A DNA stretch of 64,000 nt from NCBI GenBank assembly GCA_963668315.1, contig OY764216.1:4864001-4928000 (forward strand), in the 5' to 3' direction. Below the pieces are notes generated by a model. That model had not been told where the DNA came from and did not search any database. It saw only the letters and a list, made by a program, of their open reading frames with translations. The position numbers and the translations under genes are program-made. Below, one piece after another: positions 1,667 to 10,914 of the stretch. The stretch's first letter is position 1; every line of letters starts with the position of its first letter. The DNA is from Spirochaetia bacterium. GTDB lineage: Bacteria; Spirochaetota; Spirochaetia; DSM-2461.

Positions 1667-1764
1667 ATATAACAAAGATTTGCTACGGATTTGCCTATGT
1701 CACAATTATTGCTGTTCGCAATAATTCCGCCAAATACGGCAAACCGCAGAAATCGGCGTTATAC
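1667..1764 (+). repeat. attC site 1 (98 bp)
   Basis: ATATAAC...GTTATAC; stem GATTT[G]CTACGG[A]TTTGCC / GGCAAACCGCAGAAATC with two extrahelical bases; inner AATTATTGC/GCAATAATT stem. Confidence 0.92.
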
Positions 1765-1767
1765 CGA

Positions 1768-1796
1768 TTGCAAATTCAAAGAAATAGGAATATACT
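1768..1796 (+). promoter_or_regulatory. Cassette-internal sigma70-type promoter, TTGCAA-N17-TATACT
   Basis: Near-consensus hexamers with a 17-bp spacer at the 5' end of cassette 2. Confidence 0.6.
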
Positions 1797-1829
1797 CCAA
1801 TAATAACATTGAAAATACGGAGTATAGTC

Positions 1830-3038
1830 GTGATAACAAATATAATAGCAACCTATAAAAGACTCATCCAGCACACAAATTATACTCATCACAGATATAT
1901 CTATAAAGAATTTAATATAAATAATAGGCTAACAGGACTAATTGGTCCAAGAGGAACAGGAAAGACAACACTTCTTATTCAATATATTAAAGAGAATTTA
2001 AAAATTGATGATTGTATTTATACGTCATTAGATAATATTTATTTTACGCAAAATAATTTAATCGAATTTGTAAATGAATTATATGATATTTATGGGATCA
2101 GATATTTCTTCTTCGATGAAACACATAAATATCCGAACTGGAATCAAGAATTAAAAAATCTTTATGATTCCTACCCTGACATAAAATTAATCTTTTCTGG
2201 AAGTTCAAGTCTAGATTTAATTAAAGGATCTTATGATTTATCTAGAAGGGGAGTCATATTCAGAATTGGAGGAATGTCTTTTAGAGAATATTTACTCTTC
2301 AATAATATAGCAGATATCCCTTCAATTACATTTCCCGAATTATTAGAGAATAGATCAAGATATGAAAACGAAATAGGATCTATGAAGAAAATATTGGGAT
2401 ATTTTAATGAATATTTAGGAAAAGGATATTATCCATTTATTCTGGAAGATAACCAAAGTTACAGCCAAAAAATCCAAAGAATTATTGAAAAGACGATTTA
2501 TGAAGATATTTCAAATTACTATAAATTGAAAACAGAAAATCTGATAAGTTTTAAAAGAATAATTTCTTATATGGCAACAATTCCACCAGGAGAATTAAAC
2601 AGAAATAACATAGCAAAAAATATAGGATTAGATAATAAGACAATACAGAATTACCTTGATATTCTTCAGGAAACAGGACTGATTCAATTCATATTAAAGA
2701 ATAAAGCAGGAAGCAATATTTTAAAGAAGACAGAAAAAATATTCCTGGATAATACAGATATTTATAGATCCACAAGTGAAGAAATCGGTTTTGAAACACC
2801 AATTGGAACGTTAAGAGAGATATTTTTTATTAAAATGCTGTTGAATTCTGGGAACAAAATCCATTTCAGCGAAATTGGAGATTATCAAATCAATAATATC
2901 AATTTCGAGATTGGTGGTAAGAATAAAGACCTTAAGCAAATAAAAAACAATTTGGAAAACTCATATTTAGTAAAGGATGATATAATTACTGGGAGTAAGT
3001 ATGAAATCCCGTTGTACCTGTTCGGATTTCTGTACTAA
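1830..3038 (+). CDS. Cassette 2: AAA+ ATPase (AAA_14 + DUF4143 type)
   Basis: Walker A GPRGTGKT, FFFDETHKYPNW, SGSSS, DLSRR, C-terminal FEIGGKNK...IPLYLFGFLY; likely GTG start at 1830 with GGAG at 1819-1822 (track start 1809). Confidence 0.88.
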   Translation: MITNIIATYKRLIQHTNYTHHRYIYKEFNINNRLTGLIGPRGTGKTTLLIQYIKENLKIDDCIYTSLDNIYFTQNNLIEFVNELYDIYGIRYFFFDETHKYPNWNQELKNLYDSYPDIKLIFSGSSSLDLIKGSYDLSRRGVIFRIGGMSFREYLLFNNIADIPSITFPELLENRSRYENEIGSMKKILGYFNEYLGKGYYPFILEDNQSYSQKIQRIIEKTIYEDISNYYKLKTENLISFKRIISYMATIPPGELNRNNIAKNIGLDNKTIQNYLDILQETGLIQFILKNKAGSNILKKTEKIFLDNTDIYRSTSEEIGFETPIGTLREIFFIKMLLNSGNKIHFSEIGDYQINNINFEIGGKNKDLKQIKNNLENSYLVKDDIITGSKYEIPLYLFGFLY

Positions 3039-3051
3039 GAAAAAAGAGACG

Positions 3052-3150
3052 GTATAACAAACATTTGAACTTGATTCGCCTACTGTCATACTTTTTGCAT
3101 TCGCAAAAAACACGCCAGCTGACGGCTCACAAGTTAAATGGGCGTTATAC
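3052..3150 (+). repeat. attC site 2 (99 bp)
   Basis: GTATAAC...GTTATAC; stem CATTT[G]AACTTG[A]T / ACAAGTTAAATG; inner TTTTTGC/GCAAAAA stem. Confidence 0.92.
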
Positions 3151-3168
3151 GGATAAAATGTAGTAAAA

Positions 3169-3948
3169 ATGACAAAACATAATGAAGAGATATTAAAAAT
3201 TTGGAATATGGTACTAAATCTCGCTATTCAAATGCTTAATAATGAAGAAGATGCGAAAGATGCCGCACAATCAATATTTGAAATAGTATCAGAGAAAATT
3301 GAAACTTTTAGGAATGAATCAAAGTTAAGTACATGGATATACCGGATTTCATATAATTATCTGATTGATGAAATAAGATATAGAAATAGTGAAAAAATCA
3401 CATTTGAACTTTTTGAAAATGAAATAACACAATTTAAAGAATATGAGAATGAATATAATCTTACCCAAGAAGAAGAAAAAATATATATAGAAGAAATAAA
3501 GATAGGATGTACAAAAGCATTGTTACAATGTTTAAATCCTGAAGATCGCTTTATTTTCATATTAGGAACAATTTTCAATTTTCCGCAAAAAGATGCTTCT
3601 GAAATATGTAATATCTCGTATGATAATTATCGTACCCGGTTATCAAGATCAAGAAATAAAATAAAGAACTTCATGTCAAATAATTGTGGTCTCGTAAATC
3701 CAGATGCAAAGTGTAAATGCAGCAAAAGGATACTAATCGCAAAAGAAAGAGGAAGAATAAATTTTGAGAAATCTTTATACAAAACAAATAGCAATAGGAT
3801 TAATAAATATATTATTGAAATGAATGATATAGATGAAATTTCAAGAATTTATCAGGACAATCCATTCCTCGAAATTAACAATGATGATATCTCCTGTAAA
3901 ATCCAAAATTTGGGAATAGTACAAGAGATATCAACAATAGTTATTTAA
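3169..3948 (+). CDS. Cassette 3 gene A: ECF RNA polymerase sigma factor with a Cys-rich C-terminal extension
   Basis: Region 2 (DAKDAAQSIF...FRNESKLSTWIYRISYN), region 4 (YRTRLSRSRNKI), then NCGLVNPDAKCKC. Confidence 0.88.
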   Translation: MTKHNEEILKIWNMVLNLAIQMLNNEEDAKDAAQSIFEIVSEKIETFRNESKLSTWIYRISYNYLIDEIRYRNSEKITFELFENEITQFKEYENEYNLTQEEEKIYIEEIKIGCTKALLQCLNPEDRFIFILGTIFNFPQKDASEICNISYDNYRTRLSRSRNKIKNFMSNNCGLVNPDAKCKCSKRILIAKERGRINFEKSLYKTNSNRINKYIIEMNDIDEISRIYQDNPFLEINNDDISCKIQNLGIVQEISTIVI

Positions 3949-4258
3949 TTAAAGTACCAGATGAAAAGCCAATAAGTATTCCTAATATTACTGTTGTAAT
4001 ACAAATTTGAAAGAAAGCAGAATTATCTTGTCTGAAAATAAGAAAAGATAAAGGAATAAAGAAAAGGGAAGTAATGATTAATCCATTCAAAATAGAATTA
4101 TCAACTATTCTGAAAAAAGTATTCACAATCCCAATAATAAGCCACATGGTGAATGCAGAAAGAATAAATAACTTATCAAGCTTTTTAATTAGCATTGGAA
4201 CTATATCTGCCAGTGCTGCTACCAAACCAATAAGAATAGAAATAATCAAATTGTTCAT
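3941..4258 (-). CDS. Cassette 3 gene B: small 4-TM membrane protein, antisense to the array
   Basis: 105 aa with four hydrophobic segments; AGGAG RBS upstream; convergent with the sigma gene and overlapping its stop. Confidence 0.8.
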   Translation of the reverse strand: MNNLIISILIGLVAALADIVPMLIKKLDKLFILSAFTMWLIIGIVNTFFRIVDNSILNGLIITSLFFIPLSFLIFRQDNSAFFQICITTVILGILIGFSSGTLIK

Positions 4259-4278
4259 ATAATCTCCTATATCAATAT

Positions 4279-4306
4279 TAGACGTAAAAATTATTAATTT
4301 GTGACA
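4279..4306 (-). promoter_or_regulatory. Candidate ECF-type promoter TGTCACA-N15-CGTCTA for the 4-TM gene
   Basis: Plus strand TAGACG (4279-4284) and TGTGACA (4300-4306); resembles TGTCACA/CGTC ECF promoter motifs. Confidence 0.5.
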
Positions 4307-4338
4307 GAAAAAAAGAAAAAAAATTAAGAAAAAAAGTA

Positions 4339-4347
4339 TGATATAAT
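4339..4347 (+). promoter_or_regulatory. Extended -10 promoter TGaTATAAT pointing through attC3 into the Sir2-HerA cassette
   Basis: Perfect TGnTATAAT preceded by A-tracts. Confidence 0.45.
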
Positions 4348-4365
4348 GAACATTGGCAACGCACC

Positions 4366-4463
4366 GTATAACAATGAATTGGAGCCGAATTGCCTATGTC
4401 ACAATTATTGCTGTTCGCAATAATTCCGCCATGGACGGCAATCAGCTCAATTCGGCGTTATGT
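4366..4463 (+). repeat. attC site 3 (98 bp)
   Basis: GTATAAC...GTTATGT; stem GAATT[G]GAGCCG[A]ATTGCC / GGCAATCAGCTCAATTC; 42-bp centre (4390-4431) identical to attC1 (1691-1732). Confidence 0.92.
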
Positions 4464-4490
4464 CTACAAAATAAAAGATGAGAGGAATAC

Positions 4491-5684
4491 ATGGAAAAGA
4501 TTAATGTCATTACAGAGATAAAAGAACTTAAAAATCAATTATCCTATTCAAAACGATATGCATTTTTCTTCGGAGCTGGAACATCTTGTGCTCTTGGCGT
4601 TCCAAATATTGCGACTCTCACTTCGTCAGTTGAGGATTTATTAAAGGAAAAAAATAAAGAAAACTTTAAAGTGATTAAACAAGATTTAGAATCTTCTATT
4701 CCAGATAAAACAATAAATATTGAGGATATATTAAATCAAATTAGACAGATTCGTATGATTACGAGAGAAAGAGAAGATAAAAAATATCTTGAAATCACAG
4801 GTAAGAGCGCTAAAGAACTAGATAACTCTATTTGTAAAAGTATCTATGAGATTATATCCCAAAAAGAATCAGATGCCGACTTAACAAATACTAAAAGATT
4901 CTTCGCATGGCTTAGTATGCAAAATAAGAATTATTCGTCAGAAGTATTTACTTCAAACTATGATATGATTATTGAGAAATCCTTAGAGGGTATAAATTAT
5001 CCATATTTTGATGGTTTTGTCGGCGCATATGAACCGTTCTTTTGGCAAGAAAGTATTGATAAATTTGTAGATAATAATGACCTAACAAAAGATTGGATAA
5101 GGTTATGGAAAATTCATGGATCATTAAATTGGTTTTGGAAAGTTAATGACGGAAAAGAACAAATTATACGCGGTAGTAAGATATCTGATATTCGGACACT
5201 TTCTAATGAGCTAGTAATCTATCCATCAAAGGAGAAGTATAATTCCTCAAGAAAACAACCCTTTGTTTCTTATTTTGAGAGACTTAAAAAGGTGCTTACT
5301 AGTGGAGAAGTTTTATTTGTTTTTTCTGGTTATTCATTTTCTGATCAGCATATAAATGATATTGTTTTTGATGCTTTAAGACAAAATAATAGATTACATA
5401 TAGTGGTGTTCTCCTATTTAGATGAAGAAGTAGAAAATTTGTATAAAATTTTATCTTCGTACCTAAATATATCAGTATACGGTCCACAAAAGGCTATCTT
5501 AAGAGGAAATATATATGAATGGAATACACTAGAACAAGATGAAGAATCTATTAAAACAAATTCTATATATTGGGATAATACAAAAAAATCACTCACTATA
5601 GGTGACTTTAATAAATTGGTAGATTTTTTAATTAAATCTTCTGGGAATGTAAAATCCATTGAGGATGAAGTTAATGGAAAATGA
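4491..5684 (+). CDS. Cassette 4 gene 1: SIR2-family (SIR2_2) NADase of a Sir2-HerA defence system
   Basis: FFFGAGTS, TSNYD, KIHGS, GYSFSDQHIN sirtuin motifs; overlaps the herA start. Confidence 0.9.
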   Translation: MEKINVITEIKELKNQLSYSKRYAFFFGAGTSCALGVPNIATLTSSVEDLLKEKNKENFKVIKQDLESSIPDKTINIEDILNQIRQIRMITREREDKKYLEITGKSAKELDNSICKSIYEIISQKESDADLTNTKRFFAWLSMQNKNYSSEVFTSNYDMIIEKSLEGINYPYFDGFVGAYEPFFWQESIDKFVDNNDLTKDWIRLWKIHGSLNWFWKVNDGKEQIIRGSKISDIRTLSNELVIYPSKEKYNSSRKQPFVSYFERLKKVLTSGEVLFVFSGYSFSDQHINDIVFDALRQNNRLHIVVFSYLDEEVENLYKILSSYLNISVYGPQKAILRGNIYEWNTLEQDEESIKTNSIYWDNTKKSLTIGDFNKLVDFLIKSSGNVKSIEDEVNGK

Positions 5685-7458
5685 TATTACATATCTTGGA
5701 AAAGTCATACGAGTTGATTCAAATATTGTAGAAGTTGAAATTTCAGATTTGATTCCTTCTTCAACTCCAGTTATCAATGGCAAGTTGTATAAAATTGGTC
5801 AGATTGGAACTTTCATCAAAATGCCAATAGGTAATATTACAATTTATGGAATTGTTTCATCCGTAAGTAATACACCAACGAAAAATGATGATAATCAATT
5901 AAGGCAGCTAGTTGGATCGCGATATCTGAGTGTACAACTAATAGGTGAAAAAATCGGCGATTCTGATTTTGAGAGGGGAATCGGAACATATCCCACAATA
6001 AATGATGAGGTTCATTTAGTAATTGAAGAGGATCTCGCAAATATTTACGGTAATGATAAAAATGGATCAATTGAAATAGGAACTCATTCATCCTCTGAAA
6101 ATTTAAAAGTGTATGTTGATTTACATAAATTGGTTTTAAGGCATAGTGCTATTTTAGGTTCAACAGGTAGTGGGAAATCAAATACAACTGTTAGTATACT
6201 GAAATCGATACTAAATGATTATGATGGTTCAAGGGTTTTGCTAGTTGATCCACATGGGGAATATGCTTCTGCATTTCCAGATGCCACAGTTTTTAAACTA
6301 AATGATCCAGACTCTCCATTGTATGTACCATTTTGGTTAATGAATTTTGATGAATTAGCCTATTTCTTAGTTGGAGCAAAGCCTACCGATGATCAAAAAC
6401 CAGAATATAGATTATTAAGAGAATGGATTGTTAAGTATAAAAAAGAGCATTGTGAACTTAAAGCTGGAAATGTAAATCCTAATTTTATAACAGCAGATTC
6501 ACCTATTCCATTTAGTGCTAGAAAACTTTGGTATGATATGAATTGGTGGGTAAATGCATCTTTTGAAGAAACGACAAAAGATAAACAAACCGTAGATAAT
6601 GCTTGCATAAAAAAAGATGAAAGCGGGACTGAGCTTGTAGGAAATTATGAAGGGCTAGAACCTGCAATATTTGAATCATATCAAATGGGATCAACTGCAC
6701 CATATAAATCAAAGCATCAGGATTTCTATACGTATGAGAAAAAGATCTTGAATAGACTTAAGGATTCAAGATTTGATTTCATGTTTCATCCAGGAGATTA
6801 TAAAGATGAAAAATCACCGAAAGATTTACACAATTTGCTTAATGAGTGGATTGGCAGTGACAAAAAACTTGCCATATTAGACTTAAGTGGCGTTCCTTTT
6901 GAAGTTTTAGATATTACTATTGGACTTATTACTAGATTTGTTTATGACAGCATGTTTTGGGGAAGAAAGGAATCATATACAGGAAAACAAAGACCAATAT
7001 TGCTCGCCTATGAAGAAGCACATACTTATCTTGGTAAAAATGAAAATATTAGTTATTCACGGAAAGCTGTAGAACGAATTTTTAAAGAGGGAAGAAAATT
7101 TGGGGTAGGTTCATTAGTTATATCCCAAAGACCTTCTGAAATATCTGAAACAATCTTAGCACAGATTGGAACATTTATCTCTTTGCGTCTGACTAATTCA
7201 GCTGATCAATCAATAGTAAAATCGTCATCTCCAGATAATTTAAATAGTTTAATTGATTTATTACCATCATTACGAATTGGTGAAGCCATTATTGTTGGTG
7301 AATCTATAAAAATACCATCAAGAGTTAGAATAGAATTAAATCATCCTAGACCAACAAGTGATGATCCAGATATTGAAAAATGTTGGAAGAAAAAACATGA
7401 ATCTAATGATGATAATTATAAGACTGTTGTTACAAAGATAAGAGAACAAAGAATATAA
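5674..7458 (+). CDS. herA: Cassette 4 gene 2: HerA/DUF87-family ATPase (HAS barrel + helicase)
   Basis: RHSAILGSTGSGKS, VDPHGEY, YEEAH, EGRKFG, ISQRPSE; likely ATG at 5674 overlapping the sir2 3' end. Confidence 0.92.
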   Translation: MENDITYLGKVIRVDSNIVEVEISDLIPSSTPVINGKLYKIGQIGTFIKMPIGNITIYGIVSSVSNTPTKNDDNQLRQLVGSRYLSVQLIGEKIGDSDFERGIGTYPTINDEVHLVIEEDLANIYGNDKNGSIEIGTHSSSENLKVYVDLHKLVLRHSAILGSTGSGKSNTTVSILKSILNDYDGSRVLLVDPHGEYASAFPDATVFKLNDPDSPLYVPFWLMNFDELAYFLVGAKPTDDQKPEYRLLREWIVKYKKEHCELKAGNVNPNFITADSPIPFSARKLWYDMNWWVNASFEETTKDKQTVDNACIKKDESGTELVGNYEGLEPAIFESYQMGSTAPYKSKHQDFYTYEKKILNRLKDSRFDFMFHPGDYKDEKSPKDLHNLLNEWIGSDKKLAILDLSGVPFEVLDITIGLITRFVYDSMFWGRKESYTGKQRPILLAYEEAHTYLGKNENISYSRKAVERIFKEGRKFGVGSLVISQRPSEISETILAQIGTFISLRLTNSADQSIVKSSSPDNLNSLIDLLPSLRIGEAIIVGESIKIPSRVRIELNHPRPTSDDPDIEKCWKKKHESNDDNYKTVVTKIREQRI

Positions 7459-7470
7459 AGGGAGATAACA

Positions 7471-7680
7471 ATGGAAAGAAAGTACATAGAATCATCAATG
7501 ATATCTAGTATAGGATTTGATTTTGCAAGCTCTACCTTAGAAATTGAGTTTCGTGATGGTGCATTATGGCAATATTATGATTTTCCAGAATCAATGTGGT
7601 ATGAATTTGAATCAGCTGAATCCCAAGGAAAATTCTTTCATAGGGAAATAAAAGATCAATACACAGGTTCTCGAGTATAA
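7471..7680 (+). CDS. Cassette 4 gene 3: KTSC domain protein
   Basis: 69 aa, SSMISSIGFD...LEIEFRDG..WQYYD.P..W..F..AESQGKFF...IKDQY; GGGAG RBS. Confidence 0.9.
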   Translation: MERKYIESSMISSIGFDFASSTLEIEFRDGALWQYYDFPESMWYEFESAESQGKFFHREIKDQYTGSRV

Positions 7681-7692
7681 ATAAAAATCGAG

Positions 7693-7790
7693 ACATAACA
7701 ATCAAATGCAACTGTCATGGCAAACTGTCACAAAATCCGCTTACGCATATTTTGCGCCAATTCACCATGCAGCTGATTTGGGCGTTATAT
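7693..7790 (+). repeat. attC site 4 (98 bp)
   Basis: ACATAAC...GTTATAT; stem CAAAT[G]CAACTG[T]CATGG / CCATGCAGCTGATTTG. Confidence 0.9.
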
Positions 7791-7874
7791 TACAAATGGT
7801 AGAATAAAAAACATCTTTACTTTTATACAGTAAAGGTTAAACTTATTACGTTCATTAAAATAGGGAGAAAGAAA

Positions 7875-8339
7875 ATGAAAAGAATAATTGTTTTACTAAG
7901 TGCTTTATTAGTATTTGCAGGTTGCGCTTCTCAGGTCACCGTGAATGAAGAGGATCGACAATATCAAGAAATCGTTGATTTTCCAGGCAAAAATAAAGAT
8001 GAGATATTTGATCTGATTAGTCAAAGTATGTCCAATGTTTTTGTTAGTGCAGAATCTGTAATCGATTATGAAAATTCTGAAAGTGGAAAAATTATTGGAA
8101 AAGGAGTTGCTGAGATTATCTATACAATAGCTCCTACATATACTCATTATACTTTAACAGTTGAGGTTAAGGATGAAAGAGTTCGATTTAGCTTTACTGA
8201 TATGTATTTCCCTCCATCTGGAGTATTGGGAAGAATGCCTTTAACTAATCAAGGTCAAATAGATTCATTTTCAGAGCATGCTAGAAAATTAGTGAATGAA
8301 ATTACAGAATTCTGTCAAGATAGTAATGATAATTGGTAG
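7875..8339 (+). CDS. Cassette 5: lipoprotein (DUF4468-like); cassette lacks its own attC
   Basis: Lipobox VFAG-C; SVIDY....GKIIGKG...VEVKDERVRFSF pattern. Confidence 0.75.
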   Translation: MKRIIVLLSALLVFAGCASQVTVNEEDRQYQEIVDFPGKNKDEIFDLISQSMSNVFVSAESVIDYENSESGKIIGKGVAEIIYTIAPTYTHYTLTVEVKDERVRFSFTDMYFPPSGVLGRMPLTNQGQIDSFSEHARKLVNEITEFCQDSNDNW

Positions 8340-8395
8340 AATATCCTACCTTGAAATAGATAAAGCAACCCTTTTGTCTGTAAAATTAGAAAAAG

Positions 8396-9070
8396 TTAAT
8401 CAGTCTCCATATTCAAATATCTTTTACCTGTAAACCACTGCTCATCTATTTCCATTAACAGAGCCGCGATCAGACGATCAACGGACTTCCTATTTGGAAA
8501 TATCATGGCTACCCTTGTTCGCCTCTTTATTTCTTTCATCTGCCGCTCTGCCAAATTTGAAGTTCTTAGCCGTCGCCAATGAGCCTTTGGCATTGAGAAG
8601 ACGGTAAGGGACTCGGGGATATTCTCATCCATCCAGCTACTCAGATCGGGCGCCGTTTCCTCATATTTTTTAACAGCCATTGAAAGAAAGCGTTTCGCTT
8701 CTTCTCCATTGGGTGCGTTAAAAATAGTTCTGATGTCTTCTGCTACCTCCTTCTCCATGCTCTTCTTGGGAACGTGATGAGAAGCATTCTGCTGGAGATG
8801 AAACTGACAGCGATGCCAGGGAACCGTAGGAAAAACAGCCTCTATTGCAGATTTTAGACCACTATGGGCATCTGAAGTTATCATTCTGACTCCATGTAAA
8901 CCTCGGTCAACCAATCCAGCGAGGAACTTTCTCCAATGAACATCAGCCTCGCTGAGTTCTGTTGAAATCCCAAGAACCCTTCTCATTCCCTTATTATCAA
9001 CTCCATAAGCAATTAGAACGGCTGCCGAAACGACAGCTCTATCCACACGAGCTTTTTCATAGGTCGCATC
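8396..9070 (-). pseudogene. IS256 transposase, C-terminal fragment of the outer element
   Basis: DATYEKAR, MITSDAHSGL, WHRCQFH, RTSNLAERQMKEIKRRT; joins in frame to 10426-10914. Confidence 0.9.
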
Positions 9071-9078
9071 CACAATGA

Positions 9079-10425
9079 GATAGTGTCCAGACATGTTCGC
9101 AACTTTCCTTTCAAGAAGCCATCAAAATTCCCCATCAGGCAGCCTGACCTAATTTAATTCTTTGTTCATCTATCGATTTTTCACTGATATACCGTTTTCC
9201 CGAAGCCCAGTCTTCTGAGTATTCAATCAGGTAACAACAGACTAGTCTAAGGTAGGAGTCAATACTGGGAAAGATTCCCACAACACGAGATCGTCTACGG
9301 ATTTCCCGATTCAATCGTTCCAGTTGATTGGTAGAAGCAGTTTTCCGGCTGTCTATTTCTGAGAATTCATAATACTGAAGAGAGTCTTCTAATCCGTCTT
9401 CAAGACAAGTCATGGACTTCGGAAATTGTTCTTCAAATTCCTCTATAATTCGGTATGCATATTCACGGGCCGATTGGGAGTTCGGTTGATTCCAAATCTG
9501 CTTAATTCTGCCGGCAACAGCTTCTTTATCCCTGGCAGGAAGATGGGACAGGATGTTCCTCATAAAATGAATTTTACAGCGTTGCCAGGAGCAACCGATG
9601 AGTTCCTTTCTTATGGCGGCTTGAAGTCCCAGATGGGCATCAGAGACACAGAGCCAGGCATTTTTAAATCCTCTTGCTTTAAGAGACCTGAACAGTTCGG
9701 TATAAGTGCTTTCTGATTCTTCCTGCATTGGTTCAACAGCAAGGATTTCTTTGAATCCTTGTGAATTAACACCAGATACAACCATCACAGCCATATTTCT
9801 CACTCTTCCGTTATACCGGATCTTTTCATAGAGGGCATCAACCCAGATGACAGGATATTCTGAATCAAGAGATCGATAGCGGAATTCATCTACCTGTTCA
9901 TCAAGTCCCTTATTGATTTCAGAGACCTGGCTGGCTGAAATATTTTCAATGCCCAGACTCATAGCCAATTTCTCAATCTTTCTGGTTGAAACACCGTTGA
10001 TAAATGCTTCCTGGACAACCTGAATCAGAGCTTGCTCGGATCTCTTCTTTTCTGTTACAAAGAAGGGAATATATCCGCCTTTTCTGAGCTTGGGGACAAG
10101 GAGATACAGTGTTCCAAGACGAGTATCAAATCGGCGTGGTCGATATCCAGAAAAATGGGTGGATCTTCCCATAGAATGAGACCCCTTTTGAGCTCCTACT
10201 TTATTCGCCGCTTCTATTTCCATAAGCTTTTCCAGTAGCCATTGCAATAAGCTGAAAATGGGATCCGGCTCCGATATGAATTGGAGTAGCATTTTTTCCA
10301 GATTCCCATTATCATTTTCCTTAGCCATCGTTTTTCTCCTTGTGGTTTTAGTAGTGCATTACCATTCTGGAGAATTCGATGGCTTCTTTCAATAATTAAA
10401 ATTGCGAACTTGATTGTACGCTATC
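9079..10425 (-). mobile_element. Inner IS256-family element (1347 bp) with 8-bp target duplication CACAATGA
   Basis: IRs GATAGTGTCCAGACATGTTCGCAACTTT / GATAGCGTACAATCAAGTTCGCAATTTT; TSD at 9071-9078 and 10426-10433. Confidence 0.93.
9135..10328 (-). CDS. IS256-family transposase (intact)
   Basis: 397 aa; GVSTRK, WVDALYEK, VSDAHLGL, WQRCKIH, STNQLERLNREIRRR. Confidence 0.95.
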   Translation of the reverse strand: MAKENDNGNLEKMLLQFISEPDPIFSLLQWLLEKLMEIEAANKVGAQKGSHSMGRSTHFSGYRPRRFDTRLGTLYLLVPKLRKGGYIPFFVTEKKRSEQALIQVVQEAFINGVSTRKIEKLAMSLGIENISASQVSEINKGLDEQVDEFRYRSLDSEYPVIWVDALYEKIRYNGRVRNMAVMVVSGVNSQGFKEILAVEPMQEESESTYTELFRSLKARGFKNAWLCVSDAHLGLQAAIRKELIGCSWQRCKIHFMRNILSHLPARDKEAVAGRIKQIWNQPNSQSAREYAYRIIEEFEEQFPKSMTCLEDGLEDSLQYYEFSEIDSRKTASTNQLERLNREIRRRSRVVGIFPSIDSYLRLVCCYLIEYSEDWASGKRYISEKSIDEQRIKLGQAA

Positions 10426-10914
10426 CACAATGAGATAGCGAAAAGCTCCCAGAGGGCGATTCCGCCACTTAGAAATCTCTTCATCCAGCAGTGCGGTTGC
10501 TTCAGAAACCTGGGATTGGGAAACTTCGAAGCCGCAGAGCTGTTCTACAATTTTGGTTACTCTGCGAGTTGATACCCCCTGGATATACATCTGAGCTATT
10601 GCCATTTTCAACGCCCTTTCGCTGCGGCACCCTTTTTCAATGCTGCCAGGATAGAATTCCATCCCACGGACCTGCGGAATCTCGATAGGGATCTCACCTA
10701 CACGAGTTCGAATCTTCCTGCTTTTGTACCCGTTTCTATGGCCAATGCGATCGTCATTCCGTTCATAATGACTGGCTTGGATTGCCTTCTCTTGCTCTAA
10801 CCGCATAGATAAATTCATTATTGAACTTATGACCTTTGTTAATCCTTCTCGATTATCTGCCTGGAGCTCTTCAATCATTTGATCGAAAACGGTATAGTAA
10901 TCCTCGTTAGTCAT
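10426..10914 (-). pseudogene. IS256 transposase, N-terminal fragment of the outer element
   Basis: RNGYKSR..TRVGEI...PQVR, MYIQGVSTRRV; ends at YLIV at the insertion point. Confidence 0.9.

Follow-up and report, generated by a model that had tools for sequence, protein, structure and literature searches.

A three-gene sir2-herA-KTSC integron cassette in a Spirochaetia bacterium, likely the Paenibacillus-type SIR2-HerA anti-phage system in split form

The window analysed here is a stretch of 64,000 nt from the genome of a Spirochaetia bacterium (contig OY764216.1 of assembly GCA_963668315.1, positions 4,864,001-4,928,000), which contains an integron gene cassette carrying sir2, herA and a short gene for a KTSC domain. 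We conclude, with a probability of about 0.75, that this cassette is a three-gene split form of the SIR2-HerA anti-phage system of Paenibacillus sp. 453MF, in which the KTSC protein is likely a subunit docked on HerA, and that the system likely acts through the abortive destruction of nicotinamide adenine dinucleotide (NAD+). Of the 152 evaluable loci of this HerA clade, 151 have kept the KTSC gene, a count that describes clade-wide conservation among related, partly identical loci and not independent events, and the same domain is found at the C-terminus of the Paenibacillus HerA. The system itself has already been tested in its fused form, and only the identity and the role of the KTSC domain have gone undescribed.

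Genes of the cassette and their Paenibacillus counterparts

The sir2 gene (4491-5684, plus strand) encodes a protein of 397 aa that matches PF13289 (SIR2_2) and the SIR2 model of PADLOC (E 3e-125). It overlaps by 11 nt with herA (5674-7458, plus strand), whose product, 594 aa counted from the ATG, matches DUF87 and the HerA model of PADLOC (E 2e-158). The KTSC gene (7471-7680, plus strand), which has its own ribosome-binding site, starts 12 nt past the end of herA and encodes 69 aa matching PF13619 (E 5e-23; 81 bits against a cut-off of 25). Conserved positions of the KTSC protein include S8, G15, L23, F27, Y35, S51 and G53. The PADLOC matches bear out the names given to the first two genes in a preliminary description of this DNA, and sir2 and herA, lying side by side in one operon, form by Pfam and PADLOC the pair that defines the SIR2-HerA anti-phage system.

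The residues expected to carry out catalysis are present. The window Sir2 has a GAG loop at 28-30 (G28-A29-G30) together with N156, D158 and H209, which align with N163, D165 and H212 of the Paenibacillus protein and are conserved in all 77 relatives compared. In the window HerA, K168, YEEAH (446-450), EGRK (472-475) and QRP (485-487), which we take to represent the Walker A, Walker B and arginine-finger motifs, are likewise invariant (K168, EEAH, EGRK and QRP; 61/61 sequences).

The closest solved structures of both Sir2 and HerA come from Paenibacillus sp. 453MF (E 5e-43 and 6e-120, respectively). The best match of the window KTSC among the PDB sequences was found to be the HerA of the same strain (696 aa), at residues 629-696 (E 6.7e-15), with stand-alone KTSC proteins ranking behind it. 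The structure predicted for the window KTSC (predicted local distance difference test score 96.6) superposes not only on the KTSC structures 7x8c and 4rgi (template modelling (TM) score 0.96 to each) but also on the HerA chains of 8wld, 8wof, 8wiv and 8wj3 (TM 0.74-0.92); the KTSC domain has therefore been built in the cryo-electron microscopy models of both the free HerA and the complex. The Paenibacillus SIR2-HerA (8W9L, 8WIV, 8WJ3, 8WLD and 8WOF; PMC11472057) resembles the window operon in its catalytic residues and in the order of its three domains, with KTSC last, and differs from it in that KTSC is fused to the HerA C-terminus in Paenibacillus, whereas in the window it is a separate gene of an operon that forms an integron cassette. 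A KTSC domain at or directly after the HerA C-terminus, which marks the Paenibacillus type, is thus found in the window as well.

In the parts of PMC11472057 covered here, it has been shown that SIR2 forms a ring on the HerA hexamer, that complex formation turns on the NADase, ATPase, helicase and nuclease activities, and that protection of E. coli against T7 requires the catalysis of both Sir2 and HerA as well as their interface, the mutants having lost it. Residues 576-696 of HerA are described there as an 'arm domain' that wraps the neighbouring subunit and steadies a split spiral; the arm helices named are 19-20, which may lie inside or outside KTSC, a word that occurs nowhere in its text and supplement. 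The trigger and the gating of SIR2-HerA are stated in the same parts as open questions. As the fused form has been tested and solved, with KTSC at residues 629-696 of its HerA, the view that the window genes define an uncharacterised subtype cannot be upheld: the third component of the operon is real, but the system is a known one.

Linkage of KTSC to one clade of HerA

Three sets of loci were compared, each ordered by similarity to the window. The genome set consisted of 78 loci fetched via Sir2 from species-representative genomes, of which 67 were evaluable after the removal of eight loci cut by contig ends and three distant SIR2 loci without HerA; the metagenome set, anchored on HerA, consisted of the best 79 loci among the matches listed, eight of which were cut, leaving 71; and the plasmid set consisted of the 21 loci inspected out of 42 matches, 14 with a SIR2 partner and seven with DUF4297-type or unnamed partners. 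KTSC directly follows herA in all 67 genome loci, two of them frameshifted, and it follows herA in all 71 metagenome loci, with Sir2 upstream of herA in 66 of 67 evaluable ones. Among the SIR2-partnered plasmid loci KTSC is present in 13 of 14, including those of E. coli, Rhizobium, Paraburkholderia and the haloarchaeon Natrinema; at the lone exception HerA is cut to 415 aa and lies beside a transposase. None of the seven plasmid HerA loci with non-SIR2 partners has a KTSC gene. The distance between herA and KTSC ranges from -11 to 44 nt (n=80), and all KTSC-bearing HerA proteins form one clade (support 0.999) in a tree of 87 sequences, from which 16 short or absent ones were left out and which does not include the Paenibacillus HerA. 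The one E. coli locus with KTSC is on plasmid NZ_CP010123 (1 of 5,426 genomes), and a phage collection gave one weak match and no carrier. KTSC had been proposed in the preliminary description as a third component, a proposal that would have suffered had close homologues rarely carried it; such rarity was not seen in the neighbourhoods, and KTSC is not a passenger of this HerA clade.

Two of the loci have further genes next to the operon. At L065 a second KTSC domain forms the N-terminus of a 391-aa protein (1939-3114), encoded just upstream of sir2-herA-KTSC and weakly matching an Mrr-type nuclease. On the Natrinema plasmid (L095) the haloarchaeal operon is followed by ADP-ribosylglycohydrolase genes (4359-5336).

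The other known systems stand further away. Nezha, the Sir2-HerA types I-III of E. coli (in the parts of PMC13434337 covered) and the Sir2-HerA of S. aureus (8YHX) consist, like the window operon, of a Sir2 and HerA pair, but they are far more distant (Sir2 E ~1e-13, HerA E 1e-24 to 1e-32), and no fused KTSC is present in their PDB sequences. The possibility that the window clade is the E. coli type I or III was ruled out, as both fall outside the clade in the HerA tree and the KTSC gene is absent from their loci, which were located by primer. The word KTSC is not used in the abstract, one results section, some of the methods and the supplement of PMC13434337, the 2026 classification of the E. 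coli systems. On the other hand, one unpublished mention, given without data in the part of PMC9503650 covered, places HerA and KTSC together with an endoDNase instead of the sirtuin. In those neighbourhoods, as in the window, a KTSC gene is linked to a HerA-like ATPase; their partner is a nuclease, whereas here KTSC goes with SIR2 and not with the DUF4297-type partners. No description of Sir2-HerA-KTSC was found in the literature, with subscription journals mostly outside the search.

Candidate roles of the KTSC protein

In the mechanism that we propose, the free KTSC protein is, by homology and fold, the same domain as the C-terminal end of the Paenibacillus HerA, made as a separate protein. 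By homology, a Sir2 ring would sit on a HerA hexamer and would deplete NAD+ upon infection, which likely aborts the infection by the phage; NAD+ depletion by a SIR2-HerA system has been reported in the part of bioRxiv 10.1101/2021.12.14.472415 covered. The free KTSC would dock on the HerA arm or the RecA rim, where the fused copy sits, and would there steady or gate the ring. Such a structural or allosteric role is, in our judgement, somewhat favoured over all other roles taken together.

A different role is suggested by the near identity in fold with the archaeal KTSC 7x8c, which is an 'ssDNA-binding protein' according to the title of Tian et al. 2022: KTSC might sense infection, binding phage single-stranded DNA (ssDNA) or RNA and switching on HerA and Sir2. 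The aromatic and basic residues R3, W33, Y35 and K54 of KTSC are conserved, and a preference of the Paenibacillus SIR2-HerA for ssDNA and 3' overhangs is reported in the parts of PMC11472057 covered. The same parts, however, report that the NADase of this KTSC-bearing complex is unchanged by ssDNA in vitro, and the acidity of KTSC (net charge -6 in the window, negative in 60 of 61 clade members) counts mildly against this role; we regard the sensor as unlikely, and a nucleic-acid sensing role in general as hardly less so. In a third reading KTSC would be a brake, antitoxin-like or mimicking DNA, that holds the NADase inactive and is displaced by a phage protein. The small size and the acidity of KTSC, the place of its gene at the end of the operon and its near-constant retention beside intact Sir2 and HerA would suit such a brake; yet the Paenibacillus complex is active in vitro despite its covalently attached KTSC (PMC11472057, parts covered), which makes the brake improbable. 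Least probable is that KTSC is independent and dispensable and simply travels with herA. KTSC domains are indeed known on their own, in phages and as fusions with other proteins, and other Sir2-HerA types lack KTSC, but the gene is retained across bacterial phyla and in an archaeon, down to ~30% HerA identity, and in the solved Paenibacillus relative the domain forms an ordered part of the HerA chain.

Several points weigh against the three-gene split form with a HerA-docked KTSC as we have described it. The fusion is documented by a single PDB sequence and could reflect an uncommon loss of a stop codon; no fused HerA-KTSC was seen in the 71 metagenome loci or among the other loci compared, and a weak search returned no longer KTSC relative among six candidates. 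No deletion of the arm or of KTSC is reported in the results, discussion and supplement of PMC11472057, and the literature search turned up no experiment with a three-gene form. The E. coli types I and III defend without KTSC. The conservation counts include identical pairs of loci (L014/L057, L033/L034 and L045/L046) and are thus not independent. Finally, promoter-like sites occur in the cassette at chance level (45 found versus 51.6 expected), so the cassette may be silent in this genome. From the failure to find other fused forms it also follows that three separate genes are the norm, from which the tested Paenibacillus fusion departs.

A more far-reaching view can be put forward only tentatively, and we consider it doubtful. 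In that view KTSC, an unnamed arm in the cryo-electron microscopy models, would be the subunit, hitherto missing, that senses the trigger or gates the complex in a Sir2-HerA clade widespread among bacteria and archaea; the system would be natively three-gene; and the integrons of this lineage would capture whole defence operons of three or four genes and 3-5 kb as single cassettes. If the system is natively three-gene, two-gene clones of the clade would score as dead or toxic, and whole-operon capture by the integrons of this lineage, if true, would exceed the two-component limit that has been published (see below).

Cassette packaging and integron setting

The cassette (4458 to 7784, plus strand) has a G+C content of 31%, compared with 51% for the genome. 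It opens at the core GTTATGT (4457-4463) of the upstream attC site (4366 to 4463, plus strand), and its own attC site (7693 to 7790, plus strand) begins with the inverse core ACATAAC (7693-7699) and ends with the core GTTATAT (7784-7790). Since GTTATGT and ACATAAC are exact complements and the next core GTT begins at 7784, the unit is the 3327 bp from 4458 to 7784. The bottom strands of both flanking sites fold into single hairpins of about -23 kcal/mol (z-scores -5.4 and -4.7), more favourably than the top strands do; none of 200 shuffles folded as well. A covariance model was rebuilt from 31 attC sites of the source genome, which had themselves been found with a window-based model and included only one of the window's four; it scored the four window sites at 75-97 bits and the best place inside the cassette at 16 bits. 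A heuristic scan of the cassette gave one branched 157-nt fold with a core of three mismatches. An internal attC site and a reading as two cassettes were both ruled out. The preliminary account of sir2, an overlapping herA and a 69-aa KTSC gene within one matched core/inverse-core pair is thus confirmed; the matched pair, the bottom-strand hairpin and the lack of an internal attC are the marks of a single cassette, which may be moved or excised as one unit through the integron integrase IntI.

The same packaging recurs in a minority of the relatives, most of which are not cassettes: 4 of 62 genome loci passed a strict cassette test (2 of 192 control windows), and so did 3 of 44 metagenome loci (0 of 88 controls), one of the three looking weak. 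Cassette packaging as a clade-typical feature was ruled out by these counts. At L010, L055 and the identical pair L014/L057 the same inverse core lies right past KTSC and is accompanied by an attC hairpin (z -3.7, -1.9 and -7.0, respectively), and these loci cluster with the window, L013 and L012 in the HerA tree (support 0.954). Other cores are present at L029, L043, L066 and L129, with mixed hairpins (z -3.7, +0.4, -3.8 and -2.7). An intI gene was found in four of five genomes, those of L010, L055, L057 and L013, and none in that of L066. At L057 (~1696-1860 and 5169-5335), and also at L014, the same GC-rich hairpin unit of 165 bp follows both attC sites that flank the three-gene cassette; it ends in ATT where GTT would be expected, and is possibly a gene-less cassette or a miniature element that targets attC.

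Two further attC sites precede the cassette in the same array, the first at 1667 to 1764 (plus strand; covariance model and attC scan) and the second at 3052 to 3150 (plus strand; hairpin fold, covariance model and attC scan). The cassette at 1759-3144 carries an AAA_14/DUF4143 ATPase matching the PADLOC candidate PDC-S01, and the neighbouring one at 3145-4457 encodes an ECF-like sigma factor of 259 aa and, on the opposite strand, a convergent, overlapping open reading frame for a hydrophobic protein of 105 aa without a Pfam match. Downstream, the next cassette (7785-10914; DUF4468 lipoprotein) has no attC site and is followed by copies of a Mutator-family transposase. The window contains no integrase gene, and the only intI above the family cut-off in the source genome is at C1:3,134,160-3,135,089, ~1.7 Mb from the array; the array of four attC sites, with no intI beside it, is therefore a cluster of attC sites lacking integron integrases (CALIN) and not a complete integron. 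The cassette was presumably captured by this distant integrase, and may be excisable as one circle. None of 30 related genomes yielded this HerA.

The source genome has at least 34 attC sites (150 of 860 candidates scored). Those at 3.13-3.16 Mb form an array together with intI, and others lie in clusters or singly in the rest of the genome; many of the arrays are interrupted by insertion sequences, and the first gene past intI and an insertion sequence encodes a 1278-aa PIN/Dsr1-like protein. Neighbouring attC sites have a median spacing of 1.6 kb (n=24, some values inflated by insertion sequences or missed sites). The size of the sir2-herA-KTSC cassette, which had been called unusual, is indeed large by this measure with its three genes and 3.3 kb, but it is not unique, for the same genome has a cassette of 5.0 kb that holds a four-gene operon of the cyclic-oligonucleotide-based anti-phage signalling system (CBASS). 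This operon (C1:4,639,227-4,644,357; L117 3228-8358, minus strand) lies between two attC sites and encodes a cyclase (334 aa), an E1-E2 protein (595 aa), a JAB protein (162 aa) and an endonuclease-SAVED effector (480 aa); its GTTATAC/GTATAAC pair is exactly matched, with no internal attC. In the parts covered of a survey of chromosomal integrons and CALINs, the known defence systems in cassettes never had more than two components (bioRxiv 10.1101/2024.07.02.601686). The cassettes of that survey, like the one in the window, hold a defence system between attC sites, and the window cassette has three genes against that maximum of two, while a two-gene Sir2-HerA model would count only two. The CBASS cassette is a clearer exception to the published limit than the sir2-herA-KTSC cassette.

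The natural split of the operon makes an unnamed C-terminal domain accessible to tests separately from HerA, and the two-gene models of Sir2-HerA used in catalogues miss a component in this clade. Together with the four-gene CBASS cassette, the sir2-herA-KTSC cassette shows that the cargo of chromosomal integrons outside Vibrio can include complete defence operons of several genes.

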